Counted from the stretch's first letter, positions 4,203-23,253 are shown. The stretch: 64,000 nt of DNA from Chloroflexota bacterium (GCA_963667925.1 OY764080.1:85990-149989), one strand, 5' to 3'. Numbers and translations are program-made. The notes: generated by a model from the sequence alone, not told the origin.

Positions 4203-5636
4203 ATGACGACCCGCTATGAACCCAACTGGCGCTCCTTGCGCGAGCACCGCACGCCACGCTGGTTCACCGACGCCAAGTTCGGCATCTATACCCACTGGGG
4301 CATCTACAGCGTGCCGGCGTGGGGCCCCAACGCCACCTGGTATCCGTATCGGATGTACCGGCAGGGGGAGCCACACTACGCGCACCACGTGAAGACTTAC
4401 GGGCATCCCGGTGAGTTCGGCTACAAGGACTTCATTCCGGAGTTCAACGGGGCGAACTTCGACGCCGACGCATGGGCCGATCTGTTCAAGCGGGCCGGGG
4501 CGCAGTTCGCGGGACCGGTAGCGGAGCACCACGACGGTTTCGCCCTCTGGGACAGCGCGCACACCGAGTGGAACGCGGCCCGCATGGGGCCGAAGCGTGA
4601 CGTGGTGGGCGAACTGGCGCAGGCCGTTCGGCGTCACGGCATGCGCTACATGGTGGCCATGCACCACGCGGAAAATTGGTGGTTCTTCCCGCACTGGCGG
4701 ACGGACTTCGACACGTCCGATCCTCGCTATGCCGGCTTGTACGGCGAGCCGCACAACTTGGACTTCCCGCTGCGGGACGTCGAGTGGGACGAGCAGGACA
4801 AGCCGAGCAGGGCGTTCCTCGATTCCTGGAAGGCCAGGCTGGTCGAAGTCGTGGACAAGTACGAGCCGGACTACATCTGGTTCGACTTTGGCCTGAAGGC
4901 CGTGCACGAGCAGTACAAGCAAGACTTCCTGGCCTACTACTACAACAAGGAAGCCGAATGGGGCCGCGGCGTGGTGGTGACCTACAAGTGGGACAACCTG
5001 CCGCCGGGCGTGGGCGTGCTGGACATCGAGCTGGGCAAGATGCCGGATCAGGCCTACCACGAGTGGATTACCGACACGACGGTGGACGACGGCTCGGGCT
5101 GGGGCTACCTCCGGGAGACCACGTACAAGTCGGCCACCGAACTGGTGCAGTACCTGGTGGACAACGTCAGCAAGAACGGGCTGATGCTCTTGAACGTGGG
5201 CCCAAAGCCCGACGGAACGATCCCTGACGAGGCGGTGTCGGCGCTGGAAGGCATCGGCGACTGGCTGCGCGTCAACGGCGAGGCGATCTACGCGACCACG
5301 CCCTGGTGGACCTACGGCGAAGGGCCTACCGAGATGTCGGTATCAGGGGCCTTCAGCGACACCAAGGAGAAGCTGGCGTACCAGGGCAGCGACATCCGGT
5401 TCACGGTGAAGGGCAACGTGCTCTACGCAATCTGCCTGGACTGGCCGGAGCCGACCTTCACGATCGAGTCGCTGAAAACGCTGTATCCGAACGAGATCCG
5501 GTCGGTGGAATTGCTGGGTGCTGACGGCGAGCTTTCGTGGCGCACGACGGCTGAGGGGCTGGAGATCCAGCGGCCCAAGCGTCGGCCCTGCGAACACGCC
5601 TACGCGTTCAAGATCACGCGGAATACGTCGATGTAG
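4203..5636 (+). CDS. Alpha-L-fucosidase, GH29
   Basis: 'WFTDAKFGIYTHWGIYSVP', 'EHHDGFALW', nucleophile region 'IWFD' and 'SKNGLMLLNVGPKPDGTIP'. Confidence 0.93.
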   Translation: MTTRYEPNWRSLREHRTPRWFTDAKFGIYTHWGIYSVPAWGPNATWYPYRMYRQGEPHYAHHVKTYGHPGEFGYKDFIPEFNGANFDADAWADLFKRAGAQFAGPVAEHHDGFALWDSAHTEWNAARMGPKRDVVGELAQAVRRHGMRYMVAMHHAENWWFFPHWRTDFDTSDPRYAGLYGEPHNLDFPLRDVEWDEQDKPSRAFLDSWKARLVEVVDKYEPDYIWFDFGLKAVHEQYKQDFLAYYYNKEAEWGRGVVVTYKWDNLPPGVGVLDIELGKMPDQAYHEWITDTTVDDGSGWGYLRETTYKSATELVQYLVDNVSKNGLMLLNVGPKPDGTIPDEAVSALEGIGDWLRVNGEAIYATTPWWTYGEGPTEMSVSGAFSDTKEKLAYQGSDIRFTVKGNVLYAICLDWPEPTFTIESLKTLYPNEIRSVELLGADGELSWRTTAEGLEIQRPKRRPCEHAYAFKITRNTSM

Positions 5637-7160: not shown

Positions 7161-7922
7161 CTAGAGGCCGATGGCCATGCGGGTGGTGAGGGCGCCGTCG
7201 ACGTAGAGGGTCGTTCCGTTGACGTAGGAGGCCTCATCGGAGGCGAGATAAACGACGGCGGCGGCGATTTCCGGTGGCTGGCCGACGCGACCGGCCGGGA
7301 TTGTGGCGCCGATGGAGGAGGCGTCCATGTTCTGGTCGGCATAACGGTCGACCTGGATGGCGCCGGGGGCGATGACGTTACAAGTGACCCCGTGCGGGGC
7401 GAGCGCCAGGGCCAGGGCACGGGAGAAACCGTTGATCCCGCCCTTGGTGGAGGCGTAGACGACGTTTTGGACGAGGTGTACGTAGCCATGGACGGAACTG
7501 ATGTTGATGATGCGGCCGGATCCGCGCTCGACCATGTGGCGGGCGGCTTCCTGGCTGCCGGTGATCATGGCGATCAGGTTGATGTTGAAGATATCCAGCC
7601 AGTTCTGGGTGTTGCCTTCGAGGAAGTCCTCGCTCAGGGTCCAGCCGGCGTTGTTGACCAGGATGTCCAGTTGGCCGTAGCGCTCGATCGCGCCGGTCAC
7701 GACGCCGCGGGCGGTGTCGGGGTCGCGGAAGTCGGCCTGCGTGATTTCGACTTCAGCGCCGTCGGCCCGCAACTCATCGCGTAGCTCTTCGGCCCCGGTG
7801 AAGCTGTTTGAGGCCGACACCACCAGGCGGCAGCCTTCCGCCGCCAGCCGCCGCGCAATGCCCTTGCCGATGCCGGTTCCACCGCCGGTAACGACGGCGA
7901 CGCGTCCTCGCAAGTCTGCCAT
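7161..7922 (-). CDS. SDR family NAD(P)-dependent oxidoreductase
   Basis: ATG at 7922 (MADLRGRVAVVTGGGTGIG); 'LVNNAG'; catalytic 'YASTK'. Confidence 0.92.
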   Translation of the reverse strand: MADLRGRVAVVTGGGTGIGKGIARRLAAEGCRLVVSASNSFTGAEELRDELRADGAEVEITQADFRDPDTARGVVTGAIERYGQLDILVNNAGWTLSEDFLEGNTQNWLDIFNINLIAMITGSQEAARHMVERGSGRIINISSVHGYVHLVQNVVYASTKGGINGFSRALALALAPHGVTCNVIAPGAIQVDRYADQNMDASSIGATIPAGRVGQPPEIAAAVVYLASDEASYVNGTTLYVDGALTTRMAIGL

Positions 7923-8071
7923 GGTCTCGCTCGCTTGAAGTGCCGCTGGTGATTGCGCGCATTTTGGCATTGAGTGCGGGGCTGTGAACCGTTCGCGGAG
8001 AGGTGTGACAAGCTTCGGCCAGCCAGACTGCGACGATGGCCTGTGCCGGCTACCAGGAGATGGGGTGCCGA

Positions 8072-8824
8072 ATGACCCGAGCGGGGGCTTGGCTGGCACG
8101 GTGGGCGCTGCTGGCGGTGCTGCTACTGGCGGCGTGCGGGGAAGCGGCGGACGAAGCGCCGGCGGCCGATAACGACGGAGCTTTCGCTGAGCGGCGGGCG
8201 CAGTTGATGGCGGAGATTCGCGCGTCGGACCGCGAGATATCGGAGCCGGTGCTGGCGGCGGTGGAGCGGGTGGACCGGCACCGGTTTGTGCGGCCGGAGA
8301 ACGTGGACGAGGCCTATGAGAACCGGCCGCTGCCGATTGGCGAGGGGCAGACGATCTCGCAGCCGCTGATCGTGGCGATGATGACGGAGGCGCTGGGGAT
8401 CTCGCACGGTGACCGGATTCTTGAGATCGGAACGGGATCGGGCTACCAGGCGGCGGTGCTGGCGGAGATGGGCGCGACGGTCTATAGCGTGGAGATCATC
8501 CCGCCGCTGGCCGAGTGGTCCGAGGAGAACCTGCGCGGCGCGGGCTACGGGAACGTCGTGCAGCGCACGGATGACGGCTACTTTGGCTGGGAAGCGGAGG
8601 CGCCCTTTGACGGCATCATCGTCACGGCGGCGCCGGATCACGTGCCGCAGCCGCTAATCCGGCAACTCAAGGTGGGCGGGCGGATGATCGTGCCGGTGGG
8701 TCCGCCGGGGTTCTATCAGACGCTCTGGCAGATCGAGCGTGCGGAGGAGGGCGTGGTGGCGACGAACCTGGGGCTGGTTCGTTTCGTTCCGCTTACCGGG
8801 GAGATGTCGGCCGAAGATCCCTAG
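8072..8824 (+). CDS. pcm: Protein-L-isoaspartate O-methyltransferase with predicted lipoprotein signal peptide
   Basis: 'PLPIGEGQTISQP', 'LEIGTGSGYQAAVL' and 'APFDGIIVTAA'. N-terminus MTRAGAWLARWALLAVLLLAA-C carries a lipobox. Confidence 0.92.
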   Translation: MTRAGAWLARWALLAVLLLAACGEAADEAPAADNDGAFAERRAQLMAEIRASDREISEPVLAAVERVDRHRFVRPENVDEAYENRPLPIGEGQTISQPLIVAMMTEALGISHGDRILEIGTGSGYQAAVLAEMGATVYSVEIIPPLAEWSEENLRGAGYGNVVQRTDDGYFGWEAEAPFDGIIVTAAPDHVPQPLIRQLKVGGRMIVPVGPPGFYQTLWQIERAEEGVVATNLGLVRFVPLTGEMSAEDP

Positions 8825-11132
8825 CGCGCCAGAGCGGCACCGCGGCGGCGTAGGCGAGGGCCGCGCCGAGTAGCGTCCAGGCGAAGCCGATGGACACGAT
8901 CAGGATGGCGGCCACGAAGGCGGCGGCGACCGAGGCGGTCCCGTTGACGGCCCAGGCCCAGGAGATGGCCGACCGGTTCTTGGCCAGCGCGCGGATGGCG
9001 GACGGCATGACGGTTCCCAGGGCCAGGGAGGGCATGGCCGCCAGCACGCCGATGAGCACGCGAACGGCAAGCGGCGCGCCCAGGGCCAGTGGCGCCGCCA
9101 GCAGCAGCCCGCCCAGGATGAACACGCTCATTGCGGCCATGCCGGCGGCTGTTTGCGGGTGAGGCTGCCACCAGCGCAAGGACAGGCTGCCGAGGCCGGC
9201 CCAGGCGAGCATGGCGGCGATGCCGGTGGCGAAGGCGACGGTTGGGGCGTCGAGCACCAGGATGAGGCGTTGCAGCAGGGCGATCTGGGTTGCCGTGAAG
9301 GCAACTCCAGCGGCGGCGACGTAGGCGAGACGGCGAAGCCCAACGCGGCTTGCGCCACGGCGACGGCGCCCCATGAGCGGCGCGACCATGGTGAGCGCGG
9401 CGGCTCCGGTGGCGAGGGCAGCCAGCGGGACCAGCACCAGGAAGCCGGCGCCGCCGAAGGGCTGCCAGGTTCGACCTGTGGTGGACAGGACTTCGCGCCA
9501 CTGGGTCCAGTCAAAGTAGTGGAAGAAGTAGGGGCGGTCGTCGGTGACGGATGTCCACGAAGCCGGTGTGGGATCGCCCTGGACGACGGTTCGGAAGGCA
9601 CGGTGGAGCGAGGTGTCAGGCAAGCGGTTGAAGCGGTTCGACTCGGCTTCCTGAAGTTGCACGTGAAACACCCAGTCGAACCCGTCGCGCTCGAGGCCGT
9701 TCGCCAGCGCCTGGCGTTCGGCCGCCGTAAAGGGCGTTGGACTGGCGACCATGGTGACGACTTCCAGCGAACGCCACGCGAGGACGTGAGCGGCCGGGTC
9801 GTGGATGCCTGCCAGTCGGAGGGCGTCGAGCAGGGATGCCCACATGCGCACGGACTCGGACGGGGTGGCTTGCAGCCAGCGGGTGACGACCAGGCGGCCG
9901 TCGGGCGTGAGGGCGCGCCAGCCGTCGGCGAGGGCATCGCGGGTGAGCGCATAGGTCTCACGAAGGCCGAAGGTGCCGGCGGCAACACCCTGGAAGGACT
10001 CGCGGAGGGGCCAGACCACCAGGTCGTAGGTGGCGGCTGACTCCAAGGCCGAGCGGACGCCTTGATCGAGGATGCGGACGCGGTCGTCGTTCAGCACGGT
10101 GGTCTCGGCGGCGTCCTGCCAGGCTTGACGAATCGCCGCGTCGGGCTGGACGAGGTCGATAGCGCCGACCCCGGCGCGGACCAACACGGCGGCGTCGAAT
10201 GCGCCGATGGGGTCGAGTAGCAGGGCCGAGTTGGACGGGCGACTACGGACGGCATGGGCGAGCGGGACGTGGTCGAGGGCCTCGGTCAGTGGGATGTCCA
10301 GCGCCGCGGCGTTAGCACCGTCCACGGTAAGGCCGATGTGGGGCCTGGGAATCGGGCCTGCGTAGTTCAGGCTCAGGCCGGTGGCGTTGCGGAAGCCGGC
10401 GTTCTCGAGGATGTCCACGCGTGAGTTTGTGGAGAGCTTCGTGTCGAGATGACGCGCGTCGGGTCGTTGCAGCGCCTGGGCGAGCTGCGAGTGGACGGAG
10501 ACGCGCGGACCTGACGGGGCAATGACAATGGCTGCGGCGATTAGGGCCAGACCCAACAGGCCCGCGCCCGATGCAGGCAGCCGCGGCGCCACAACCAATG
10601 GCGCGGCCACCGCCAGCGCCGCGGCCAGCAGGATCGTCGCGGCCGATCCAACAAGCGCAAGGAGCGGTACGGCCAGGGCCGCGCCGGCGGCGGACCCGGC
10701 CAGACTCGCGCCGTAGGTCGTGCCGGCGCCGGCCGGTCGATGTCGCAACACGGCAACGACGGCGACGCCGGCGCAGGTGAACGGTACGGCGGCCACAATG
10801 AAAAAGAGCGCGAGCCACGCAAGCTGGCTGGCGTCGGCACCGATGCGGTAGGTGTCCAGCGGAATGCGGTCGGCCGTGACGTAGGCGCCAACGGCGGTGA
10901 GGGCAAAAAGCGCGCCAGCCCAACTGATCGCGAATTGCGGTGCGGCTTGCGCTACACGCGTTGAAGTTGCCGTGAGGGTCCCGGCCGCGCCGATACCGAG
11001 CAGGGCCATGGCGATCGCGACGAAGGCGAAGTGGTGGCCCTGGGCAATGGCGTACACGCGGGTGAGCGCGATCTCGAACAGCAAGCTGGCTGCCGAAACC
11101 AGGATCAGACCTGCGGTGAGCCTGTACTTCAC
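8793..11132 (-). CDS. Polytopic membrane protein with spermidine-synthase-like (class I SAM methyltransferase) domain
   Basis: N-terminal TM bundle 'SAASLLFEIALTR', central Rossmann-like domain, 'TDDRPYFF', and C-terminal TMs with 'WAWAVNGTASV'. GTG at 11132 has a GAGG RBS; the ORF is open to 11225. Confidence 0.8.
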   Translation of the reverse strand: MKYRLTAGLILVSAASLLFEIALTRVYAIAQGHHFAFVAIAMALLGIGAAGTLTATSTRVAQAAPQFAISWAGALFALTAVGAYVTADRIPLDTYRIGADASQLAWLALFFIVAAVPFTCAGVAVVAVLRHRPAGAGTTYGASLAGSAAGAALAVPLLALVGSAATILLAAALAVAAPLVVAPRLPASGAGLLGLALIAAAIVIAPSGPRVSVHSQLAQALQRPDARHLDTKLSTNSRVDILENAGFRNATGLSLNYAGPIPRPHIGLTVDGANAAALDIPLTEALDHVPLAHAVRSRPSNSALLLDPIGAFDAAVLVRAGVGAIDLVQPDAAIRQAWQDAAETTVLNDDRVRILDQGVRSALESAATYDLVVWPLRESFQGVAAGTFGLRETYALTRDALADGWRALTPDGRLVVTRWLQATPSESVRMWASLLDALRLAGIHDPAAHVLAWRSLEVVTMVASPTPFTAAERQALANGLERDGFDWVFHVQLQEAESNRFNRLPDTSLHRAFRTVVQGDPTPASWTSVTDDRPYFFHYFDWTQWREVLSTTGRTWQPFGGAGFLVLVPLAALATGAAALTMVAPLMGRRRRGASRVGLRRLAYVAAAGVAFTATQIALLQRLILVLDAPTVAFATGIAAMLAWAGLGSLSLRWWQPHPQTAAGMAAMSVFILGGLLLAAPLALGAPLAVRVLIGVLAAMPSLALGTVMPSAIRALAKNRSAISWAWAVNGTASVAAAFVAAILIVSIGFAWTLLGAALAYAAAVPLWRARDLRPTSPR

Positions 11133-11265
11133 CGAACCTCGACTGACGCGATGTTCTGCTCGGTAGATCGTCACACGCGAGGTGGCCATTGCCCGCGCAT
11201 GGTCAAACGACTCGAGCTCGCTCAATCGGCACGAGCCTTGCCCACCTCACCCTCACGTGCCGGCG

Positions 11266-13875
11266 CTAGCCGCCTCCTTCAGCGCATCTGAGTTCAATCT
11301 GGTGCCTGCCGGCCGAAACCCGGATGCTGACGGTCGTGGGCGTACATTGCACGCCGGCGTCAGGGTCTTGGAGATCGTGGATTCGATCGTTGACGACGAG
11401 CGTTTGCGGCCGTTTCGCATGCCGATCCAGGGTCACGTCGGCGTCCACGCCGTCGGGAAGTTCGGCAGTCAGCACCAGGCTCGTCGCGGTTCGTTCCCAG
11501 GCCGCCTTGAGGTCGCCGTGGGGCGTGGGAACTACGCCCCTGGCCCAGTTCAGCACGCCGGGCCGAGGACGGATCCGGCAGGTCTGAAACCCCGGACCGG
11601 TTGGGGTTACGCCCAGGAGGTCGGTGGTAAGCACCACGCCGGCTCCCACCGCGCCCATATGCGTGAGGCTGCGCGGCGCCGCCCGACGCATCTGGTGGCG
11701 CGTGGCCACCTGATCGTCCGAGGTGATGGGGTTGTGATGCGAAAGAAAAGGACCCCAGGCTTCCCAGACCGTGGGGTTGTCCATGAGTTCGAGCATGGGT
11801 CGATAACGCTCGCGCACCCCGTTCAGGGCCTGCTCCGACAGCCCGCCGCGCAGCAGCGCGGTGAGAACGTCGCCGTAGTACGCGGGACTTGCTGGCGCCA
11901 GCGACGGATCCTGCGCGTGGAGCCTGGAAGCGATCCGCTCGGCCTGTTTGGAGGTCGACAAGCCGTGGATCACGGCAAGCGCGTTGCCGTGTTCGCTGGC
12001 AATCCCCGTCAGCGCCCCGTGGTGGTGACTGTCTTCGAACAGGCCGCGCTCGGGGTTCCAAAAGACGCGGCGTATCTGTGCCCGAACCGATTGAGCGATT
12101 CGCTTCCAGCGGCGCGCGTCCGCCGACCGATCCAGTTGCTCGGCCAGCCAGGCGGCGGCCTCCAGGCCAATGGCGTAGAAGATGTTGGTGGCCAGGTTGG
12201 CGCCGCGCAGGTCCACGGGCGCCCAGTCAAGCCAGTTCCAGCCGGGCAGGTCTCGCAGCAGGCCCAGACCGTCTCGGTACGGTTCGTACCAGTCGATCTG
12301 CCGCTGCACGCTGGGGTACAGGTGTATGGCGACGTCGCGTCGCCCCGTGTAGAGGTAGTGCTCACGCGCGTTGAGGCTCCAGGCCAGCAGGTGCTGGGGG
12401 ATGAAGGTGCGCGGATCGCTTCGGGCCGGCGGAAAGTTGATCGCAAGCTTGCCGTCGCCATGATCCGTGGCGGGAAAGGTTCGTAGCAGTCGGTCGGCCA
12501 GCGGCAGGTCGCCGTAGGCGACGTACATGCCGGCGATGCCATGACGCGGGTCGCCGGCGGCATATTGCACGCGCTCGCGCCAGGCGTCGGCCGTTAGCGT
12601 GTCCTCCATGTTCAGATAGACGGTGTCGGCGCAGGCCGTCCACAGCTTGGTGAGCAGGCGATCGGCGCAGGCGAATGCGCCGCGGCGCTCGGCCGGGTAC
12701 TCGTACGCGTCGAGCGAGATGCCGCTGATGCGGACCGGGGTGTCGGGGCTGCGGAGGGTGAGGTGCAGGTAGCGAAACTGGCGGTAGGTCGCCACCTCCC
12801 AAACCTGCTCACCGGCGCGGGTCAGGTAGCGGTCCGCAAGCGCGAGCCTGGATGGTACGCGGTTGTCGACCAGCAGTTGGTCGTAGGTCAGGTCCAGCTT
12901 GGCGCCCGGTTGGGCGTCCAGCCGTATACGTGGAAATCCGAAGACCTGGCGACCAAAGTCGAGCACCAGGAAGGGCTGGCGGATGCCGTGCCCGGCGACA
13001 AGGGCGCCCTGGAACACGGCGGCGGTGTCGTCGCCGCTGAGGACGGCTTCCGGCCGCTCCGCACAGGCGTGTTCCAGGGGAAGCCGGAGCTCGGCGGCCA
13101 GGAGGCGCGCCACGTCTAGTCTGGATCGTCGCCGCTGTTTCGTGGGCGGAGCGTAGGGGAACGCTGGCGGTTCCTGGTCGATCACCTCGCCAACCGTCAC
13201 CAGCCGGACGGGCAGCACCTCGCGCTCCCGCAGCAGCGGTGTCGATCGCGGCTCCAGCAGGAACCAGTCCAGTTCGCGGGGCGGAATCTCCCAGGCCGGA
13301 GCCCAGGCCGAGTCGTCGAATTCCACCCGCATCCAGTCGGGCGGGTCGGCGCTGGCGTCGTAGACCTCGGGGCTACCGAAGGTTCCCTCGAGCGGCGGCA
13401 CATCCCGATTCCAGGCCGTGGCCGGTAGCAGCTTCCAGTGGGAGTCAGATCCCAGCACGTCACACGTGCCGTCCGGCCGTGTGATCTCCAGTTCTGCCCA
13501 CAGGCCGGCGCGTTCGCCCACGGCGTAAGCGTTACCGCTCTGCGAGTGCCAGCCGTCGCCCTGATCCGCCGCGCCGTAGTGGTAGGCGCGCACCGCGATG
13601 GCGTTTGCTCCGGACCTGAGTTGGGAGGCCACGTCGTACGAGTCGTAGCTCTTGCGCCTGGGGTCGCTGCGCGCCGGGCCTCGGCCCACATAGGCCCCGT
13701 TGACGTACAAGGCGTAGCGATCCGACGCCGTGACGTGCAGGCGGGCCCGGCTGGGCTGCTGGGCGAGCGTGAAGCAGCGGCGGGCGTACAGATAAAAGTG
13801 ATAGGGCTTGGGCTCACCCTGGCACCAAATCCAGACCCCGGCTCGGTGACTCGACGGGGACACCCTGGCCCTCAT
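11266..13875 (-). CDS. GH78-like alpha-L-rhamnosidase family protein
   Basis: N-terminal 'TASDRYALYVNG..VGRGP', 'LDFGRQVFG', 'D..RER..Y.GD', 'TVWEAW' and 'VPTPHG'. GGAGG RBS precedes the ATG at 13875. Confidence 0.85.
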   Translation of the reverse strand: MRARVSPSSHRAGVWIWCQGEPKPYHFYLYARRCFTLAQQPSRARLHVTASDRYALYVNGAYVGRGPARSDPRRKSYDSYDVASQLRSGANAIAVRAYHYGAADQGDGWHSQSGNAYAVGERAGLWAELEITRPDGTCDVLGSDSHWKLLPATAWNRDVPPLEGTFGSPEVYDASADPPDWMRVEFDDSAWAPAWEIPPRELDWFLLEPRSTPLLREREVLPVRLVTVGEVIDQEPPAFPYAPPTKQRRRSRLDVARLLAAELRLPLEHACAERPEAVLSGDDTAAVFQGALVAGHGIRQPFLVLDFGRQVFGFPRIRLDAQPGAKLDLTYDQLLVDNRVPSRLALADRYLTRAGEQVWEVATYRQFRYLHLTLRSPDTPVRISGISLDAYEYPAERRGAFACADRLLTKLWTACADTVYLNMEDTLTADAWRERVQYAAGDPRHGIAGMYVAYGDLPLADRLLRTFPATDHGDGKLAINFPPARSDPRTFIPQHLLAWSLNAREHYLYTGRRDVAIHLYPSVQRQIDWYEPYRDGLGLLRDLPGWNWLDWAPVDLRGANLATNIFYAIGLEAAAWLAEQLDRSADARRWKRIAQSVRAQIRRVFWNPERGLFEDSHHHGALTGIASEHGNALAVIHGLSTSKQAERIASRLHAQDPSLAPASPAYYGDVLTALLRGGLSEQALNGVRERYRPMLELMDNPTVWEAWGPFLSHHNPITSDDQVATRHQMRRAAPRSLTHMGAVGAGVVLTTDLLGVTPTGPGFQTCRIRPRPGVLNWARGVVPTPHGDLKAAWERTATSLVLTAELPDGVDADVTLDRHAKRPQTLVVNDRIHDLQDPDAGVQCTPTTVSIRVSAGRHQIELRCAEGGG

Positions 13876-13998
13876 TCGCAATCCTCCAGGTAGCTGCGAC
13901 TGCGGCCGACGGCGCTAAACATAGAGCATGGCGGCGACGTCCGCCCGGAGCGGGCGGGTGTGACAAGCTGCGAATTACAGGCTCCCGACGGCTACGGA

Positions 13999-14658
13999 TT
14001 GCGCGTGTTTTGGAAGCGGCGGCGTGGGCGCGAGAAGCTGATGGCCGAGATCCGGCGGGCCGGGATCGTGCACTCGGAGCCGGTGCTGCAAGCAATCCAG
14101 CGAGTGGAGCGTCGCCACTTCGTCAGGCCCGGCGATGCGAGCGAGGCCTACGACAACGCGCCGCTGCCCATAGGCCGGGGGCAGACCATTTCGCAGCCGC
14201 TGGTGGTGGCGCTGATGTCGGAGGCACTGTCGATTGGTCCCGGCGACCGTGTGCTGGAGATTGGAACCGGGTCGGGATACCAGGCCGCCGTGCTGGCGGA
14301 GCTGGGCGCCGAGGTCTTTAGCGTCGAGATCATTCCGCAACTGGCGGCGTGGTCGGCAGCAAACCTGAGCAACGCGGGATATCGGAGTGTCCAGCTGCGC
14401 ACCGCCGACGGATTCTTCGGCTGGGACGAGCACGCGCCCTACGACGCCATCATTGTCACGGCGGCCGCCATTCGGATTCCACGGACGCTGATTCCGCAGT
14501 TGCGGATCGGCGGTCGACTGGTGGTGCCCGTGGGTTCGAACGCCTGGGATCAAACCTTATGGGTCGTGGAGCGGACCGAAGAGGGCGAGACGTCAACCAA
14601 CCTCGGCCCGGTGCGCTTCGTGCCGCTGACCGGCGACGGGCAAACCGCGGCGGGTTGA
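13999..14658 (+). CDS. pcm: Protein-L-isoaspartate O-methyltransferase, second copy, no signal peptide
   Basis: 'PLPIGRGQTISQP', 'LEIGTGSGYQAAVL' and 'APYDAIIVTAAA'. Start uncertain (13960, 13999, 14005 or 14041). Confidence 0.9.
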   Translation: MRVFWKRRRGREKLMAEIRRAGIVHSEPVLQAIQRVERRHFVRPGDASEAYDNAPLPIGRGQTISQPLVVALMSEALSIGPGDRVLEIGTGSGYQAAVLAELGAEVFSVEIIPQLAAWSAANLSNAGYRSVQLRTADGFFGWDEHAPYDAIIVTAAAIRIPRTLIPQLRIGGRLVVPVGSNAWDQTLWVVERTEEGETSTNLGPVRFVPLTGDGQTAAG

Positions 14659-14678: not shown

Positions 14679-15887
14679 TCAGACTCCCGGCTCGTCGCCG
14701 AAGCGGTCGTGCTCCTGGGGCGGGCCGTCGAACTCCAGCGCGATCACCGTATCGATGGGATCGGGAGCATAGGCCGGCAGGCCGCGCAGCCAGACGCGGT
14801 GGCCTTGCTGCTCCACGTCGACCGGAGCGTCTGATCCGAGCAGGCGCGCGCCGAGGATGCGTCCGCCGACGCCGCCCACCACGATCTCCTCGCCCGGCCA
14901 GCGCCAGCAGTGCAGGTAGAGCGTGTTGCCGATCTTGGTGTGGGTTCGGCCCGCGCTGCTGATGCGCAGCCGGTCGGCGGTTGGCTCGCTGCCGTAGATC
15001 GACTCGCCGTACACGTCCAGCCAGCGGCCCATGGCGCGCAGCCGCTCGACGGACTCGAATGGGATGCGGCCATCGGGGTCGGGTCCCACGTTCAGCAGGT
15101 AATTGCCGCCGCCGTTGGCCGCGGTGACAAGGTAGTGGATGAGCTGCCGCGGGGACTTCCACTCGCGGTCGATGGTGGAGTAGCCCCAGGTCGTGTTCAT
15201 GGTCATGCAGCTTTCCCACAGCCGATCCGGCGAGGGTGTGACGTGCTGCTCCGGCGTGTCGAAGTCCTCCGGCTGCATTGAGCGGTTGTTGATGAGGATG
15301 TCGGGATGCAGGCGCCGGACTTCGGCGTTGAGCGGGGTCGAGTTCCAGTCCTCGGGCGTGTAGGGCCAGCCGCCGTCGTACCAGAGCACCGAGAGGTCGC
15401 CGTACTCGGTGCACAGCTCCAGCACCTGGGCGTGCACGTAGTCCAGGAACTCGGCCCAGCCGTCCGGGTCGCGGGCCTTGCCGCGAAAGTAGGCCGGGTA
15501 GCGCCAGTCCAGCAGCGAGTAGTAGAACCCGTAGCGCATACCGCGCTTCTCGCAGGCATTGACGAACTCGGCCAGCAGATCGCGCTTGGCGGCGGTCTTG
15601 GGGGCCGTGAAGTCGGAGACCTGGGAGTCCCAGAGGCTGAAGCCTTCGTGGTGACGCGAGGTCAGGATCATGTAGCGCATGCCCGCGTCCTGGGCCAGCG
15701 CCACCCACTCCTCGGGGTTGTAGTGCTGGGGATCGAAGCGGTCGGCCAGTCCGCGGTATTCCTCGGGCGGAATGCTCTCTTGGTACATCGTCCACTCGTG
15801 ACGGGCCAGGAGGGAGTAGAGCCCCCAATGGATGAACATGCCGAAACGGGCGTCGTGCCACCAGGAAAGCGCGGCTTGGGTTGGCAT
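14679..15887 (-). CDS. Alpha-L-fucosidase, GH29, second copy
   Basis: 'WWHDARFGMFIHWGLYS', 'RHHEGFSLWDS', 'LWYDG' and 'GGNYLLNVGPDPDG'. AAGGA RBS precedes the ATG at 15887. Confidence 0.92.
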   Translation of the reverse strand: MPTQAALSWWHDARFGMFIHWGLYSLLARHEWTMYQESIPPEEYRGLADRFDPQHYNPEEWVALAQDAGMRYMILTSRHHEGFSLWDSQVSDFTAPKTAAKRDLLAEFVNACEKRGMRYGFYYSLLDWRYPAYFRGKARDPDGWAEFLDYVHAQVLELCTEYGDLSVLWYDGGWPYTPEDWNSTPLNAEVRRLHPDILINNRSMQPEDFDTPEQHVTPSPDRLWESCMTMNTTWGYSTIDREWKSPRQLIHYLVTAANGGGNYLLNVGPDPDGRIPFESVERLRAMGRWLDVYGESIYGSEPTADRLRISSAGRTHTKIGNTLYLHCWRWPGEEIVVGGVGGRILGARLLGSDAPVDVEQQGHRVWLRGLPAYAPDPIDTVIALEFDGPPQEHDRFGDEPGV

Positions 15888-16030
15888 TGGGGCTTCCTTA
15901 GATTGCGGAAATGAACGTTCCGCAGGATGCGACGGTTTGGCCGGTTTGGGCAACGGCGGCATGGCCTCCCGTTGTCGGTAGTGGCCTGCGGTAGCCTCGG
16001 AGACGACTAGCTCCGTCATTCGGCCGACCA

Positions 16031-16306
16031 ATGTCTGACCGTCCGTCTCGCCTCACCAGACCGCTCAACCCAATGCCTCCCGAGGTCGAACGCGCCCTTG
16101 AGGACGCCGGCGTGATGGCGGCCTACCGAGCCCGCCCGCCGTACCAGCGCAACGACTACCTGGGCTGGATCGACCGAGCCAAGCGCCCCGAAACCAGGGC
16201 CCGCCGGTTGCAGCAGATGCTGGACGAACTGGAGCAGGGGGACGTGTACATGAAGATGGCCTGGCGGGCGCGTAACGACGGTGGAACCAGGCGCCCGGCT
16301 GTCTAA
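16031..16306 (+). CDS. YdeI/OmpD-associated family protein
   Basis: 'YRARPPYQRNDYLGWIDRAKRPETRARRLQQMLDEL'. Confidence 0.85.
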   Translation: MSDRPSRLTRPLNPMPPEVERALEDAGVMAAYRARPPYQRNDYLGWIDRAKRPETRARRLQQMLDELEQGDVYMKMAWRARNDGGTRRPAV

Positions 16307-17157: not shown

Positions 17158-20100
17158 ATGATGCGTATTCGTCAGCCGATGCATGCTCGGCGGCGCGGCT
17201 GGCTCAAGGCTCTGGGGCCTCTGATTGCAGCGGCGACTCTTGTGCTGGTTGCGGCGGTGCAGCCCGTGGCGCAGGCCCAGGGACCGACACCCGGCCCGGC
17301 GCTGCTGCCAACAGTTGCTGCTGAACCGCCGAAGCCGGACCAGCGGTTCGCGATGGTGAGCAGCGGCAACTTCCATACCTGCGCGCTGCGCGCCAATGGC
17401 CAAGTCTTGTGTTGGGGTGCCGGGCCGCCAGGCGAGACGGCCGCATTCGGCTCGGTCGACCTCGGCCAGGCGTCGCCGCCGGACGGGGAACGATTCGTGG
17501 CCATCAGTAGTGGCGGCTTTCACACCTGCGGCCTGCGGGACGAAGGAACCGTCGCGTGCTGGGGCGCCGGCCGCGATGACTGGTCGGAGAGCCTGGGCCA
17601 GGTTGGATTCGGCCAGACCTCCCCTCCGGTTGGCGAGGTCTTCACCGCCATCAGCGGCGGCGCTGGGCATACGTGCGGGCTGCGCGAGGACGGCTCGGTG
17701 GCCTGCTGGGGGAACGACGAGTTCGGCCAGGCCACGCCGCCGGACGGCGAGACATTTAAATTCATCACCAGCGGCGCCAGTCACTCCTGCGGCCTTCGAG
17801 AAGACGGCTTGGTCGTGTGCTGGGGACCGGAGCCGCGTCCGGGTCCGTTTGGCGGCTGGGAAGCCCCACCGGAAGCAGAGTTCGCGTCGATCGACGCGGC
17901 ACGCGGGTATACGTGCGGCGTGCCGCTGGAGGGCCCGCCGTTCTGTTGGGGGAGCTACTCGGAGACTCCCAACCTCGCGCGGTATCCGCCAGCGGATCTG
18001 TGGCTCATCGCTGTCAGCGGGGGCGGGGGGCACGCCTGCGGTCTGCAGAAGGACGGAACGGCGGTGTGCTGGGGCGATCTGGCGGACGGGCCACCGCCAG
18101 GGCAGCGGTTCGCGTCGCTCAGTAGCGGCGTCGGGCATACCTGCGGGCTGCGCGCCGACGACGGCACGGTGGCCTGCTGGGGCGACGACACATATGGACA
18201 GGCGTCGCCGCCCGCTGGTGCGCGATACCTCGGGTCCGAGCCCAGCCCACCCGATCCCTCCGACCCGGGGGCGCCGCTGACCGCGCTCAGCAGCGGCGCT
18301 GATCATCTCTGCGGCATCACGAGCGAAGGCTTCGCCTGGTGCGTTGGCGGTGACTCATTCGGTCAGTCATCGCCGCCGCCTGGGATGAAATTCGCGTCCA
18401 TCAGTGCCGGCTGGTTTCACACCTGCGGCATTCGCCTGGATGGCGTGGCGGTCTGCTGGGGCGACGACGAGGACGGTGAATCTTCGCCACCGCCTGGGGA
18501 GCGGTTCGTGGAGATCAGCAGCGGCACAGGCCGCACCTGCGCGCTGCGCGAGGACGGAACGCCGGTCTGCTGGGGCGGCGAGAGCGCTGAAGAGACGGCG
18601 GCCGTGGAGGACGAGCAATTCACCACCATCAGTGTCGGCTGGTCCCACGCTTGCTCGTTGCGGGCCGACGGCACGGCTGTTTGCTGGGGTACCGACTGGG
18701 ATGGCCGGGCCACGCCGCCGGAGGGTGAGAAGTTCAAGGCCATCAGCAGCAGCTGGCAGCACACCTGCGGGGTGCGCGAGGACGGGACCGCGGTGTGCTG
18801 GGGCCGCGACAGGGACGGGCAGGCCTCGCCGTCCGATTACGAGCGCCTTGTGGACATCAGCACGAACCTCTATCACACCTGCGCGCTTCGAGAAGACGGC
18901 ACGCCTGTGTGTTGGGGCGCCGCTCGCCCTGGGGCGGATTACGGTCAGGCTTCACCGCTCCCCGGCGACGAGTTCGTGGACTTGAGTAGCGGAGTCGAGT
19001 TCACCTGCGGCCTGCGCGCGGATGGTACGTACAGGTGCTGGCGCTTCGGCCCCACGAAGCTCGGGTTCGACCTCGAGACCGTCGGCCGCGACGGATTCAG
19101 AGCGGTGCGGGACCGCGCGCTGACCGAAATCAGCAGCGGCAAGCGGCACACCTGTGCGATCGATGTGGACGGCGCGCTGCTGTGTTGGGGTCTGAACGAC
19201 TACGGCCAGGCCTCCCCGCCGGAGGACGGAACCTTTATTGCGGTCAGCAGCGGGGAACGACACGCCTGCGCCCTGCGCGACAACGGCGAAGCGATCTGTT
19301 GGGGCGACGCGGCGGACGGCCGGACCGAGCCGCCGGCCGACGAGCGATTCGTGGCGATCAGCAGCGGCTGGGCCTATACCTGTGCGCTGCGCGAGGACGG
19401 TGCAGCCGCGTGTTGGGGTCAGGATCATGATGGACAGGCATCACCGCCCGCGGATGAGCGCTTTAGTGCGATCAGCAGCGGGCCAACGCACGCCTGCGCG
19501 CTACGCCAGGACGGCTCGGCGGTGTGCTGGGGCCAGGATGACGACGGTCGGGCCTCGCCGCCGGCCGACGCACGATTCACCGCCATCAGCAGTGGCTGGG
19601 ATTACACCTGTGCTCTCCACCATGACGGCAGCCCCTTCTGCTGGGGCGATCCCGATAACGAGGCGGCGAGGCCGCCATTTGTCGACCGCTTCGTCTCGAT
19701 CAGCAGTGGTTCCGATCACGCGTGCGGACTACGCGCCGACGGCACGCCGGTTTGCTGGGGCGAACGGAATGCGGTCGCTCCGCCGGGCAAGTACTTCAAG
19801 GCCATCAGCATTGGCCTGGGGCACACCTGCGGATTGAGCCAGGACGGTCGGCCGATCTGCTGGGGCAGCGGTTACTTAACTCAGACTGAGTCGGCCAAGC
19901 GCTCACAGTTCGAGACGGTCAGCGCTCAGAGCTTTGTTTCCATCAGCAGCGGCTACGCGCACGTCTGCGCGCTGCGTGAGGACGGGTCGGCGGTCTGCTG
20001 GGGCTCGAGCGGAGCTGGACAGACCGCGGCGCCGCATGGCGAGACGTTTTCTTGGCTGTCCAGCGGCGGCTCTCACACGTGCGGGTTACGGTCGAATGGA

Positions 20101-23100
20101 GAGGCGGTCTGCTGGGGCTACAACGAGCAGGGTCAGGCGTCGCCGCCCGACGGCGAGCGGTTCATGGCGCTCACCAGCGGTAGCTATCACACGTGCGGGC
20201 TTCGTAGCGACGGCACCGCAATTTGCTGGGGGAGGGACGACAGCGGTGAGGCGTCGCCGCCCGAGGGCGTGCAGTTCATGGCGCTGAGCTCCGGCGAGCG
20301 CCACACCTGCGGCTTGCGCACCGATGGCCTGGCGCAGTGCTGGGGGGACGACGAGCACGGCAAGTCGACGCCAACCCAGGCCGAGAGATTCGTTGCCGTG
20401 ACCAGCGGCGAGGAGCACACCTGCGCGCTGCGCGCCGATGGCACGCCGGTTTGCTGGGGCGTGGCCGGAATCGTGACGTCACCGCCGCACGGCGTGGCAT
20501 TTGCCGCGCTGAGCAGCGGCAGACAGCACACGTGTGGATTGCTGGCGGACGGGACGCCGGTCTGCTGGGGCTCAAACGCCGGCGGTCATGAAACCCCTGG
20601 CGGGCGAGCCTTGGCGCCGCACGGCGAGAAACTCAGCGCGGTGAGCAGCGGCGGCGACTTTACGTGCGGCCTCCGCACGAACGGCACGCCGGTTTGCTGG
20701 GGCGGGCGCTTCGAGTCCGGCGCGCCGCGCTATCCGCCTATCGCCGGCGGCCCATTCGTTGCCGTCAGTAGCGGGGAACTGCATACCTGCGCGCTGCGTG
20801 AGGACGGCACGCCGCTTTGCTGGGGCGACGACTCCCACGGTCAGGCGTCGCCGCCAGCGGACGAGCGCTTTGTGGCCGTGAGCAGCGGTGAGCAACACAC
20901 CTGCGCGCTGCGCGAGGACGGTCGTGCGGAGTGTTGGGGATCTAATCGCAACGGGCGGTCAACGCCGCCGGAGGGTGAACGATTCGAGTACCTCAGCAGC
21001 GGCTCAAACCATAGTTGCGCGTTGAGGTCGGATGGATCCGCAGCGTGCTGGGGGCGCAACGACCAGGGGCAGGCCTCGCCGCCAGAAGCCGAAACGTTTG
21101 TAGCGATCGGCAGCGGCGGCGAGCATACCTGCGGCCTACGCGATGACGGGTCCACCTTCTGCTGGGGCTCTGAAGACCGATCCAGCAGCCGGGACAAGCC
21201 CTGGCCGCCGGAGGACGAGCGCTTTGTCGCCCTGAGTGTTGGACCGAACCATACCTGTGCGCTGCGAGCGGATGGCACGTTCTGGTGCAGCACGGACTTC
21301 GGTCAATGGTCCGGGGTGTTCGAGGGCGAGCGGTTCGTTTCCATCAGCAGCGCCCGCGAGCGCCTGTGTGGCCTTCGGGACGACGGTTCGGTCGCCTGCT
21401 TTGGCGACTTTCGAATCTACCTTCCGGTCGATCAGCCGTTCGTGTCGCTTAGCACTGGGGCCCGGCACACCTGTGGGCTGCGCGAGGACGGCGCCATCCT
21501 GTGCTGGGGTCAGAACAGCCGAGGCCAGGCTTCGCTTCAGGAACGGCAGCGAACGTCCTGGCGTGGCGAGCGGCTCACGGCCGTGAGCGCCGGCGGCCGC
21601 GTCGCCTGCGCGCTTCGCCAGGACGGGACGCCGGTGTGCTGGGTAGCGCCCGATTCCAGGTGGTCGTCACCACGCGACATTCCGGAGCCTCCAGACGAGC
21701 GGCTGAATACAGTCAGCGCCGGGTCCGGGTACGTCTGCGGTCTTCGCGACGACGGCACCCCTGTTTGCTGGGGACAGGACTGGAACGGTCGAGCCGTGCC
21801 GCCGGACGGCGAGGTGTTCAAGACCATTAGCAGTGGCTCCGGGCACACCTGCGCGTTGCGTCCGGACGGCACGCCCGTGTGCTGGGGGAGCAACGATGAT
21901 GGATACGGTCGGCAGGCCGGTCGGGCGTCGCCGCCGGAGGGCGAGCGCTTCACGACCATCAGCGTGGGCGCCTTCCACACCTGCGCGCTGCGCGAGGACG
22001 GAACCCCCGTGTGCTGGGGTAGCAACGAGGACGGGAACGGCAACCCGGTTGGTCAGGCTTCACCGCCCGGTGGCGAGCGGTTCACGGCCCTCAGCAGTGG
22101 ATCGCTCCACACCTGTGCCTTGCGCGGGGACGGGACGGCCGTCTGCTGGGGTGAGAACCACGACGGCCGGTCGTCGCCGCCGGAGAACGAGTCGTTCGTC
22201 GCGATCGACAGCGGCGCCGAACACACCTGTGGTGTCCGCGCCGACGGCTCCGCCGTCTGTTGGGGACAGAACTGGAACGGCCAGGCCTCGGCACCCGTGG
22301 GCGAGGACATTGCAGCTATCGGCAGTGGCCAGGATTTCAGTTGCGCCCTGCGCCAGGATGGAACCGCGACGTGCTGGGGCGAGGGGTACCCCCGCCCGCC
22401 TGATGTGACACCCCCGTACACACCGCTGGCGCCGCCGCTGCCCAGCCCGCTGCCAGAGTTCGTGGCCGTCAGTTGCGGCAGCTTCCACACTTGTGCGCTC
22501 AGCGTGGACGGTCAGGCGATTTGCTGGGGCAGCCGGTCCGGTCTTCGGCCGGTGTGGCCGCCGGAGGGTGAGCGGTTTGTCGCGCTCACCAGCGGGTGGA
22601 GCCACACGTGCGGGCTACGCGACGACGGAATGGCCGTGTGCTGGGGTGTTGGCGTCGCGGTCAACGAGTCGCCGCCTGCTGGGGAAACATTCGCCGCGCT
22701 GAGCAGCGGCTCGAGCCACACGTGCGGCCTGCGCGAAGACGGGACCGCTGTGTGTTGGGGCTTCGACGACGACGGTCGAACCTCGCCGCCGACCAGCGAG
22801 CGCTTCACGATGCTCAACAGTGGTGGCGGTCACACCTGCGGCCTGCGCGAAGACGGGACCGCCGTCTGCTGGGGACGAGACGACGAAGGCCAGGCCTCGC
22901 CGCCCGCCGACGAGCGGTTTACGGCACTTGGCAGCGGCGGCAATCATACGTGCGGGCTGCGTGCCGATGGGACTGTCCTCTGCTGGGGCGATAAGTCAGC
23001 CCCTCACGCGACACCGCCGATCGGCGAGACCTTTGTAGCCATCAGCAGCGACGCCTACCGGACCTGTGGGCTGCGTAGCGATGGGACTGTGGTGTGTTGG

Positions 23101-23253
23101 GGATCCGTTCGAGCCGGCGAATCCACATCACCCGACGACGTGCGGGTCACCACCATCAGCATGGGTAACGCACACACCTGTGGACTGCGCGCGGACGGAA
23201 CCGTCGCTTGCTGGGGGTCCGATGACGAGGGCCAGGTGTGGCCGCCGCGATGA
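17158..23253 (+). CDS. Secreted giant RCC1/BLIP-II repeat protein (49 repeats, predicted seven 7-bladed propellers)
   Basis: Signal peptide (...VQPVAQA), then 49 copies of FxAxSxGxxHTCxLRxDGxxxCWG counted by eye. Confidence 0.9.
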   Translation: MMRIRQPMHARRRGWLKALGPLIAAATLVLVAAVQPVAQAQGPTPGPALLPTVAAEPPKPDQRFAMVSSGNFHTCALRANGQVLCWGAGPPGETAAFGSVDLGQASPPDGERFVAISSGGFHTCGLRDEGTVACWGAGRDDWSESLGQVGFGQTSPPVGEVFTAISGGAGHTCGLREDGSVACWGNDEFGQATPPDGETFKFITSGASHSCGLREDGLVVCWGPEPRPGPFGGWEAPPEAEFASIDAARGYTCGVPLEGPPFCWGSYSETPNLARYPPADLWLIAVSGGGGHACGLQKDGTAVCWGDLADGPPPGQRFASLSSGVGHTCGLRADDGTVACWGDDTYGQASPPAGARYLGSEPSPPDPSDPGAPLTALSSGADHLCGITSEGFAWCVGGDSFGQSSPPPGMKFASISAGWFHTCGIRLDGVAVCWGDDEDGESSPPPGERFVEISSGTGRTCALREDGTPVCWGGESAEETAAVEDEQFTTISVGWSHACSLRADGTAVCWGTDWDGRATPPEGEKFKAISSSWQHTCGVREDGTAVCWGRDRDGQASPSDYERLVDISTNLYHTCALREDGTPVCWGAARPGADYGQASPLPGDEFVDLSSGVEFTCGLRADGTYRCWRFGPTKLGFDLETVGRDGFRAVRDRALTEISSGKRHTCAIDVDGALLCWGLNDYGQASPPEDGTFIAVSSGERHACALRDNGEAICWGDAADGRTEPPADERFVAISSGWAYTCALREDGAAACWGQDHDGQASPPADERFSAISSGPTHACALRQDGSAVCWGQDDDGRASPPADARFTAISSGWDYTCALHHDGSPFCWGDPDNEAARPPFVDRFVSISSGSDHACGLRADGTPVCWGERNAVAPPGKYFKAISIGLGHTCGLSQDGRPICWGSGYLTQTESAKRSQFETVSAQSFVSISSGYAHVCALREDGSAVCWGSSGAGQTAAPHGETFSWLSSGGSHTCGLRSNGEAVCWGYNEQGQASPPDGERFMALTSGSYHTCGLRSDGTAICWGRDDSGEASPPEGVQFMALSSGERHTCGLRTDGLAQCWGDDEHGKSTPTQAERFVAVTSGEEHTCALRADGTPVCWGVAGIVTSPPHGVAFAALSSGRQHTCGLLADGTPVCWGSNAGGHETPGGRALAPHGEKLSAVSSGGDFTCGLRTNGTPVCWGGRFESGAPRYPPIAGGPFVAVSSGELHTCALREDGTPLCWGDDSHGQASPPADERFVAVSSGEQHTCALREDGRAECWGSNRNGRSTPPEGERFEYLSSGSNHSCALRSDGSAACWGRNDQGQASPPEAETFVAIGSGGEHTCGLRDDGSTFCWGSEDRSSSRDKPWPPEDERFVALSVGPNHTCALRADGTFWCSTDFGQWSGVFEGERFVSISSARERLCGLRDDGSVACFGDFRIYLPVDQPFVSLSTGARHTCGLREDGAILCWGQNSRGQASLQERQRTSWRGERLTAVSAGGRVACALRQDGTPVCWVAPDSRWSSPRDIPEPPDERLNTVSAGSGYVCGLRDDGTPVCWGQDWNGRAVPPDGEVFKTISSGSGHTCALRPDGTPVCWGSNDDGYGRQAGRASPPEGERFTTISVGAFHTCALREDGTPVCWGSNEDGNGNPVGQASPPGGERFTALSSGSLHTCALRGDGTAVCWGENHDGRSSPPENESFVAIDSGAEHTCGVRADGSAVCWGQNWNGQASAPVGEDIAAIGSGQDFSCALRQDGTATCWGEGYPRPPDVTPPYTPLAPPLPSPLPEFVAVSCGSFHTCALSVDGQAICWGSRSGLRPVWPPEGERFVALTSGWSHTCGLRDDGMAVCWGVGVAVNESPPAGETFAALSSGSSHTCGLREDGTAVCWGFDDDGRTSPPTSERFTMLNSGGGHTCGLREDGTAVCWGRDDEGQASPPADERFTALGSGGNHTCGLRADGTVLCWGDKSAPHATPPIGETFVAISSDAYRTCGLRSDGTVVCWGSVRAGESTSPDDVRVTTISMGNAHTCGLRADGTVACWGSDDEGQVWPPR

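Follow-up and report, generated by a model that had tools for sequence, protein, structure and literature searches.

Organization of the locus

We analyzed a window of 64,000 nucleotides (nt) from a Chloroflexota bacterium (GCA_963667925.1 OY764080.1:85990-149989), in which two convergent genes meet tail to tail. The nearest database proteins likewise carry names that point to Chloroflexota. The first, pcm1 (8072..8824, + strand), encodes a lipoprotein-type protein-L-isoaspartate O-methyltransferase (PIMT) of 250 amino acids (aa) plus a stop codon. The second (8793..11132, - strand) encodes a membrane protein of 779 aa, modeled as a fold of the major facilitator superfamily (MFS) into which a spermidine-synthase-like (SpeE-like) domain, predicted to face outward, is inserted. 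The two frames overlap by 32 nt (8793..8824, both strands), between the TAA of the membrane gene (8793-8795) and the TAG of pcm1 (8822-8824); both this overlap and a convergent membrane protein of about 780 aa had been described in the original prediction, which was made from the sequence of the window. PIMTs repair spontaneous isoaspartate damage, and the characterised ones are cytoplasmic; the enzyme is treated as such because its cofactor, S-adenosylmethionine (SAM), is made in that compartment. Here we examine a PIMT gene that carries an export signal, the membrane gene beside it, and the way in which the two occur together.

An isoaspartate methyltransferase with a conserved lipoprotein signal

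The start of pcm1 is the ATG at 8072, located inside an open reading frame (ORF) that extends from 8036 to 8824 (+) and preceded by a GGAG 13 nt upstream. In the Pfam profile scan, the product matches PF01135 with 199.1 bits (cut-off 20.3; E 9.7e-59), and in NCBIfam it passes the cut-offs of both the Pcm equivalog NF001453 (227.9 bits against 188) and TIGR00080 (202.1 against 159.05). The catalytic domain comprises residues 38-250 (8183..8821, +) and retains the stretches that define the family: T94-P98 (TISQP), L117-Y125 (LEIGTGSGY, the motif-I stretch) and E141 are invariant alignment columns in a set of 55 exported homologues that contains the window copy. We take motif I and the acidic residue that follows beta-2 to serve SAM binding, and TISQP to be the substrate loop. 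The ratio of nonsynonymous to synonymous substitution rates (dN/dS) within the genus is 0.12-0.20, which indicates purifying selection.

Residues 1-22, MTRAGAWLARWALLAVLLLAAC (8072..8137, +), can be read directly as a 21-residue signal peptide with two Arg, the hydrophobic core WALLAVLLL and the lipobox L-A-A-C22, the mature protein being predicted to begin with Cys22 in lipidated form. We take the pattern [LVI][ASTVI][GAS]C, together with a charged n-region and a hydrophobic core, to be the signal of a bacterial lipoprotein. Reading the pcm1 signal for a twin-arginine motif gave none. An acidic linker of 15 aa, rich in Ala, Pro and Asp (residues 23-37; 8138..8182, +), leads from the anchor to the catalytic domain, and the Pcm profiles begin to match after it, at residues 38-42. 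At least 90% of the 55 aligned exported homologues, a set that had been picked for having signals, retain Cys22, and most of the best 120 homologues of pcm1, down to ~50% identity, combine a hydrophobic N-terminus, a Cys and a P/T/A-rich linker of variable length. Profile searches of the genome to which the window belongs returned two matches to Lgt (PF01790, best E 7.7e-54) as well as LspA (PF01252, E 2.9e-26). By its motifs, Pcm1 is a catalytically intact PIMT carrying a lipoprotein signal, as had been claimed from the sequence at the outset, and its location outside the cytoplasm is predicted.

An ordinary cytoplasmic enzyme would be obtained if the N-terminal extension were not used and translation began at the in-frame ATG at 8207 (MAEIR), in which case the proximity to the membrane gene would be due to chance; given a second pcm at a distance of only 5 kb, the area may simply be rich in pcm genes. 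The original prediction had named this downstream start as the outcome that would speak against it. The 45-48 codons upstream of MAEIR nevertheless evolve as coding sequence, with dN/dS values of 0.21-0.53 in 15/15 genus pairs (the window and five further loci) and with insertions and deletions of one and two codons that stay in frame; the Pcm profiles match from before that Met, and the signal is kept to 50% identity. A start at MAEIR is thus not supported.

The membrane partner is modeled with a transporter fold and an inserted domain

The membrane gene begins with a GTG at 11132 in an ORF spanning 8793-11225 (-), with GAGG a few nt upstream, and the resulting 779 aa are the length of most of its database orthologues. 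Its dN/dS within the genus, 0.13-0.21, also indicates purifying selection. At E <= 0.01, the window protein has a match in neither Pfam nor NCBIfam, and hence none to the MFS or PF01564. Some of its relatives at about 30-35% identity do carry PF01564, and weak matches to PRK00811 were obtained in 16 of 51 members of the family; no MFS model appears among their Pfam and NCBIfam hits, and a model whose NCBIfam name we recall as 'fused MFS/spermidine synthase' matched 0/51 members at E <= 0.001. When a profile of these 51 members was compared with solved spermidine synthases, the structure PDB 1uir was found with E 1.2e-12. The family is large, with 7345 clusters at 50% identity (E <= 1e-30), and the ESM Atlas clusters nearest to it are all named 'hypothetical protein'.

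The AlphaFold2 (AF2) model of the protein has a predicted local distance difference test (pLDDT) score of 89.1 and a predicted template modeling score (pTM) of 0.91. Foldseek, run with the whole model, returned only SpeE chains, which align to the central domain (probability 1.00, TM-score ~0.5-0.6 on the target). The MFS fold came out of the exhaustive VIA-align search only. In that search, the central domain (213-561) aligns with 1uir_A over 260 residues (Z 20.2, root mean square deviation (rmsd) 3.5 A), and the two membrane blocks together align with VMAT2 (9kqa_A) over 331 residues (Z 28.1, rmsd 3.8 A), followed by 6g9x_A (Z 27.4) and OxlT (8hpj_A, Z 27.1), all three matches spanning model residues 1-779. 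The best fold matches include several cation or drug:H+ carriers, among them VMAT2, VAChT, NorA, SotB and OCTN2. A comparison of residues 1-210 with 590-779 by hhalign gave a weak match (E 0.037, probability 1.4%) with 160 collinear columns.

According to the model, to VIA-align and to the hydropathy profile, the MFS core is formed by transmembrane helices (TM) 1-6 and 9-14, and the hairpin TM7/TM8 between the two halves bears a SpeE-like domain of 355 residues. Residues 1-206 (10515..11132, -) would comprise the N-terminal MFS half (TM1-6) and the extra helix TM7, leading outward; residues 207-561 (9450..10514, -) the SpeE-like domain, a class I Rossmann fold predicted to be extracytoplasmic and to hold the docking surface for Pcm; and residues 562-779 (8796..9449, -) the return helix TM8 and the C-terminal MFS half (TM9-14). 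The claim that a domain of SAM-methyltransferase type lies between two TM bundles is borne out by this arrangement, with ~7 helices in residues 1-206, a soluble segment at 207-561 and ~7 helices in 562-769.

The sides of the membrane were assigned from the positively charged residues of the loops. Among the 51 members, the mean number of Lys plus Arg (K+R) in successive loops is 0.10, 2.16, 1.47, 0.41, 0.04 and 1.27 before the domain, and 4.24, 0.12, 1.92, 0.04, 1.49 and 0.0 after it, with 1.90 in the C-terminal tail; the loop 587-599, with a family mean of 4.2 K/R, is placed in the cytoplasm. Because of this alternation and the positive-inside rule, we assign the N-terminus to the inside, the central domain to the outside and the C-terminus to the inside, and the SpeE-like domain is therefore predicted on the side of the lipoprotein Pcm. 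MFS proteins usually have both termini inside, in agreement with this topology.

Several polar residues embedded in the membrane are kept throughout the family (n=69), among them E20 (57), R25 (68), E616 (62), Q621 (69), R691 (68) and N730 (69). Three genomes of the phylum have a second paralogue of this family (G025:C2, G037:C351 and G049:C16), matched in two pieces that cover profile positions 6-563 and 614-801, which suggests a variant with an insertion or an altered linker after the outer domain.

The convergent arrangement recurs across phyla

One genome per species was scanned for the membrane protein; of the relatives detected, which number at least 581, we retained the 80 best loci. 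Pairing was counted where the flank behind the membrane gene measures 700 nt or more, as it does in 72 of these loci. A convergent pcm is found within 300 nt behind the membrane gene in 47/72 loci, or in 42/67 when the five close kin of the window are left aside. The ORF ends overlap in 35 of the 47 adjacent pairs, by 4 to 172 nt, the largest figures being uncertain because the membrane ORF has an internal stop in six loci. As for the remaining loci, six have a convergent pcm 0.7-5 kb away, a single one carries pcm upstream and on the same strand, and no pcm is present in 18. The titles of the paired loci include classes of Chloroflexota, Acidimicrobiia, Desulfobacterales and Nitrospirota, and the pair is present in three of the four metagenome-assembled genomes (MAGs) labeled as archaea. 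Apart from pcm and the antisense shadow ORFs that accompany it, no gene is a recurrent neighbor in the 80 loci, and no common neighbor is shared by the pcm-less loci whose downstream flank reaches 1200 nt or more (n=17).

The neighboring pcm genes resemble pcm1 in their N-termini. All of those that could be evaluated (54/54) have an N-terminal hydrophobic segment, which contains a lipobox-type Cys in 43 of the 54; among the others are near-lipobox motifs, simple signals and membrane anchors.

A tail-to-tail layout with overlapping ORF ends is unusual for a functionally linked pair, and here it is kept across phyla (loci L009-L088). This suggests that the pair is inherited or transferred together, or that antisense regulation acts at the 3' ends. 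The six loci with a more distant convergent gene (L042, L044, L049, L059, L069 and L074) hold a signal-bearing pcm 0.7-5 kb behind the membrane gene, with other DNA inserted between the two. In an Acidobacteria-labeled MAG, a C-terminal pcm fragment of 50 residues (L058:5601-5753, 46 bits, in a flank of 948 nt) lies beside the membrane gene and may be a decayed or very divergent partner. Three pcm-less loci of MAGs labeled Deltaproteobacteria or Syntrophaceae (L027, L032 and L068) have archease-like and RtcB-like genes upstream, as judged by their N-termini only, and a lysine-rich ORF downstream.

In the sample, signal-bearing PIMTs occur only with the membrane partner

The reverse question, where signal-bearing pcm genes occur, was addressed in 401 sampled genomes of the phylum, of which about 52 have a full-length membrane gene and 51 were searched for pcm. 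The tallies take in two genomes that are flagged as unpublished (G227 in the tally of 401 and G038 in a tally of 80 described below), on neither of which a particular conclusion depends. Among the 51, the pair is adjacent and convergent in 15/15 genomes of the family to which the window belongs and in 11 genomes of other families; eight genomes have a pcm elsewhere only, and 14 have no pcm at E <= 1e-25. When a pcm is present in these genomes at a non-adjacent position, a clear signal is seen in 0/20 cases, one being ambiguous.

In 80 genomes of the phylum that lack a full-length membrane gene, 46 have pcm. The best 30 of 50 listed pcm matches in these genomes comprise 29 without a signal and one with it, and this lone signal-bearing gene directly precedes a fragment of the membrane gene that is cut by the contig end. 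Overall, the pcm genes that are not neighbors of a full-length membrane gene (n=50) include 48 that are clearly signal-less, one ambiguous case, and the one whose signal-bearing copy abuts the truncated membrane gene. In the sample examined, the exported pcm never occurs without its partner, and the partner often occurs without pcm, which is a one-way dependence. The co-occurrence of signal-bearing pcm with the membrane family, proposed in the original prediction as its own check, is strongly positive in both directions. The signal therefore tracks adjacency (54/54 against one clear and one ambiguous case of 50), and the pairing holds across phyla, so that a cytoplasmic Pcm1 beside the membrane gene by mere chance has, in our judgment, next to no probability.

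Exported PIMTs form one clade, and pcm2 lies within it

A quick maximum-likelihood tree was built from 105 pcm rows (56 exported and 49 signal-less), after dropping hits with fewer than 110 bits or 170 aligned residues; it was midpoint-rooted, and rows from close kin are not independent. All 56 exported rows fall in one clade (SH-aLRT, an approximate likelihood-ratio branch support, 90), and the exported or cytoplasmic label changes three times on the tree, compared with a mean of 35 for shuffled labels; 0/500 shuffles gave a number as low.

The window contains a second PIMT gene, pcm2 (13960..14658, +), which starts at the GTG at 13960 and encodes a signal-less, predicted cytoplasmic paralogue of 232 aa (PF01135, E 8.1e-60); its orthologues have the same 232 aa and a conserved N-terminus. 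The pcm1 and pcm2 genes of the genus are sister groups inside the exported clade (SH-aLRT 100), and because of this position we consider pcm2 to be a genus-level duplicate of the exported type that has lost its signal. It looks like an enzyme that now serves in the cytoplasm. In profile searches of the 3.55-Mb, single-contig genome, pcm2 is the sole other full-length Pcm. A partial PF01135 match in the same genome, outside the window (G000:C1:2365303-2365713, locus L003; 113 bits, profile positions 54-190) may be the PIMT-like methyltransferase domain of another family.

A predicted complex of Pcm with the outer domain

The complex was predicted from the full membrane protein with one alignment (A1) and Pcm residues 38-250 with another (A2). 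The interface score ipSAE is 0.66 (0.65, 0.68 and 0.66 in the individual runs), and the best of three controls reached 0.00; the runs share at least 59% of their contacts, and the pLDDT of the partner is at least 78. The ipSAE mark that we used is reached by 116/157 solved complexes and by 2/215 mismatched pairs, counts that hold only roughly here because our own alignments were supplied. All confident contacts on the membrane protein are in its outer domain (residues 213-224, 246-261, 379-381, 420-422, 456-457, 484 and 501-505), and those on Pcm include residues 91-92, 142-144, 170, 189-197 and the C-terminal strands 209-235. The model supports a putative docking of Pcm onto the outer domain of its partner.

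A proposed module for isoaspartate methylation outside the cytoplasm

These results lead us to propose that Pcm1 would be exported through its Sec-type lipoprotein signal and tethered by the lipidated Cys22 to the cytoplasmic membrane on its outer face, where it would dock onto the outward-facing SpeE-like domain of the 779-aa protein, whose 12 core helices would constitute an MFS transporter. This protein would most probably carry SAM, an organic cation, outward to the docked Pcm and possibly also remove S-adenosylhomocysteine, which would allow the methylation and repair of isoaspartyl residues in extracytoplasmic (envelope) proteins. Where there is no Pcm, the role of enzyme would fall to the outer domain. 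We propose SAM supply because of the one-way dependence, the combination of a transporter fold with an outward SAM-type domain, and the presence of organic-cation carriers among the closest structural matches. The link between the exported PIMT and its SAM-type membrane neighbor, which the original prediction had put forward, has gained from the pairing, the transporter fold, the placement of the domain on the same side and the complex prediction; its other part, the supply of SAM, we infer, as we do the repair targets. For the module as a whole, that is, extracytoplasmic isoaspartate methylation with a membrane partner supplying SAM, we see the chances as evenly balanced.

The pcm-less loci can also be explained by a real extracytoplasmic module whose MFS part moves a solute other than SAM, such as a polyamine, a peptide or an envelope precursor, which the SpeE-like domain and Pcm then modify. 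Pcm would in that case not be a general repair enzyme; it would be a modifier dedicated to one substrate, by the methyl-ester/succinimide chemistry of some pathways for peptides that are made by ribosomes and modified after translation (RiPPs). That the membrane family lacks pcm in 18/72 loci and in many genomes implies a function of its own, its outer domain is related to polyamine aminopropyltransferases, and pcm1 matches two models of RiPP-associated methyltransferases, TIGR04364 and TIGR04188, below their thresholds. However, pcm1 passes the cut-offs of the canonical Pcm equivalogs, its signal-less duplicate pcm2 is the only other full-length Pcm of the genome, which fits ordinary PIMT chemistry, and neither a precursor-peptide gene nor any other appears as a conserved neighbor. 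This explanation would also give no account of where a Pcm exported by Sec translocation obtains its SAM, and we consider it rather unlikely.

Changes in the lineage of the window and other points against SAM supply

The outer domain of the family has a consensus motif-I-like sequence, LVLEPGGGLDV, and an acidic residue after beta-2 (VTAVExNP), and the membrane domain has two embedded glutamates. The genus of the window has instead LLLDPIGAFD (GGG to IGA), IDLVQPD (beta-2 E to Q) and Q616. The degenerate glycine loop that had been noticed in the window protein is therefore real in comparison with the family, with a Q in place of the acidic residue after beta-2, and its decay is specific to this lineage. 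The genus also has V213, H214 and T251 at positions where paired members outside it have Pro (39/42), Tyr (41/42) and Pro (42/42). In the family comparison, we saw no visible relation between the integrity of the outer-domain motifs and the pairing with pcm. In the genus of the window, the outer domain may be mainly a docking platform, with transport altered.

Several points weigh against the module that we propose. Near-invariant features are changed in the very genus of the window (GGG to IGA, beta-2 E to Q, P213V, Y214H, P251T and E616Q), and the window copy may carry out neither cofactor binding nor transport coupling as the family does; with changes in its cofactor loop, in the acidic residue after beta-2 and in one membrane Glu, SAM binding by this copy is doubtful. 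The interface residues have a mean entropy of 1.75 in paired members, compared with 1.74 at the other positions of the domain, and they are also retained in unpaired members, so that conservation of the interface gives the complex no independent support. The predicted topology derives from the positive-inside rule and from models, and export signals were called from hydropathy, from the lipobox pattern and from conservation. We know of no SAM transporter that belongs to the MFS. Among the 22 sequencing runs listed as containing the sequence, none is recorded as RNA. Finally, the membrane family is found without pcm in 18/72 loci; eight genomes that have it hold only a signal-less, non-adjacent pcm (G395, G340, G250, G322, G295, G207, G144 and G189), and no pcm at E <= 1e-25 was found in 11/14 genomes of family f14, in both genomes of family f17 and in G007. 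Because the family exists without an exported pcm, supplying Pcm is not its only role.

The loss of the cofactor-type motifs and of one membrane Glu in the partner of this genus is also what would be expected if Pcm1 were exported without turnover of SAM, as an isoaspartate-binding or scaffold protein or as a single-shot enzyme, and if the membrane protein were its anchor or receptor. To our knowledge, SAM is not known outside the cytoplasm, and the predicted contact buries Pcm residues 91-92, 142-144, 170 and 189-191, at or next to the invariant motif stretches. The invariance of LEIGTGSGY, E141 and TISQP in 55 homologues and a dN/dS of 0.12-0.20 are, however, hard to explain without catalysis, and the lack of a twin-arginine motif in the signal makes it unlikely that the enzyme is exported folded and loaded with cofactor. 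We regard this alternative as improbable.

Returning to SAM supply by the membrane partner, a broader proposal can be made: the MFS/SpeE-like family may be a dedicated SAM exporter or presenter in many bacteria and some archaea, of which the exported PIMT is one wholly dependent client. We put this forward tentatively, with more doubt than conviction. If true, methyl-transfer chemistry would take place on the outer face of the membrane, where aged surface or periplasmic proteins could be repaired. Extracytoplasmic proteins age too, and in slow-growing cells they cannot quickly be replaced by new synthesis. That an exported PIMT is never found without a partner of transporter fold implies that SAM is delivered or otherwise provided outside, which, if true, would define a new compartment for SAM chemistry. 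In the full-text literature, including the accessible parts of PMC5705917 and with subscription journals outside the scope, we found no description of an exported prokaryotic PIMT or of an MFS/SpeE membrane protein. The system offers a handle on two questions, the repair of envelope proteins and the role of thousands of membrane-embedded spermidine-synthase-like proteins, and it is open to simple experiments because of the one-way dependence and the predicted docking surface.

Surroundings of the pair and a candidate substrate

The pair lies in surroundings rich in glycoside hydrolases. According to Pfam, a short-chain dehydrogenase (7161-8099, -), an alpha-L-rhamnosidase (11266-13881, -) and an alpha-L-fucosidase (14679-16031, -) are encoded nearby, and an ORF at 4203-5636 (+) looks by eye like this fucosidase.

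Further along the window, at 17158-23253 (+), a gene encodes a giant RCC1 protein of 2031 aa, predicted to be secreted by its signal-like N-terminus and found to contain 35 RCC1_2 repeats in the family scan. The original prediction had called attention to this protein as rich in Asp-Gly, and it contains 67 Asp-Gly or Asn-Gly (DG/NG) dipeptides, or 3.3 per 100 residues, compared with about 1 in its neighbors. On its DG/NG content alone, it would be a reasonable candidate substrate of Pcm1. It is not among the conserved neighbors of the pair in the 80 loci, and nothing else links it to the pair.

Comparison with known systems

Like the cytoplasmic Pcm enzymes, Pcm1 matches the family profiles over their full length and has invariant motif-I and TISQP stretches; it differs from them in its lipoprotein signal and linker, in belonging to a separate exported clade, and in having an MFS/SpeE-like gene alongside. 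The central domain of the partner shares its fold with spermidine synthase (PF01564; Thermus thermophilus 1uir), whereas its insertion between the halves of a transporter, its predicted outward orientation and the changes in the glycine loop and beta-2 acid set it apart.

The 12 core helices of the partner resemble those of MFS carriers, as represented by VMAT2 (9kqa), VAChT (8zmr), NorA (28vj/7lo8), SotB (6kki) and MdfA (4zp0), with Z values of 20-28 over ~330 residues, and acidic and basic residues are likewise kept inside TM1 and its repeat partner. Unlike these carriers, the partner has no sequence-level match to the superfamily and, in place of the cytoplasmic loop of MFS proteins, bears a hairpin with an outer domain of 355 residues. 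No MFS subfamily is assigned to it because the differences in Z are too small.

The SAM transporter of Chlamydia presumably belongs to the DMT/EamA family. Bacterial transport of SAM through the cytoplasmic membrane is reported for Chlamydia CTL843 (PMC3104491). The SAM transporters of obligate intracellular bacteria differ from the partner of Pcm1 in being importers of another family, with neither an attached SAM-type domain nor a link to PIMT.

The AT3-SGNH O-acetyltransferases of the OafA/OafB type join a polytopic membrane domain to an extracytoplasmic transferase domain and are reported to use outside an activated donor from the cytoplasm (PMC7448272). Their folds are unrelated to those described here, they transfer acetyl and not methyl groups, and the transferase is fused to the membrane domain, whereas Pcm is a separate lipoprotein. 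The likeness is a functional analogy only, in that both systems share a polytopic membrane domain and an outer transferase domain.

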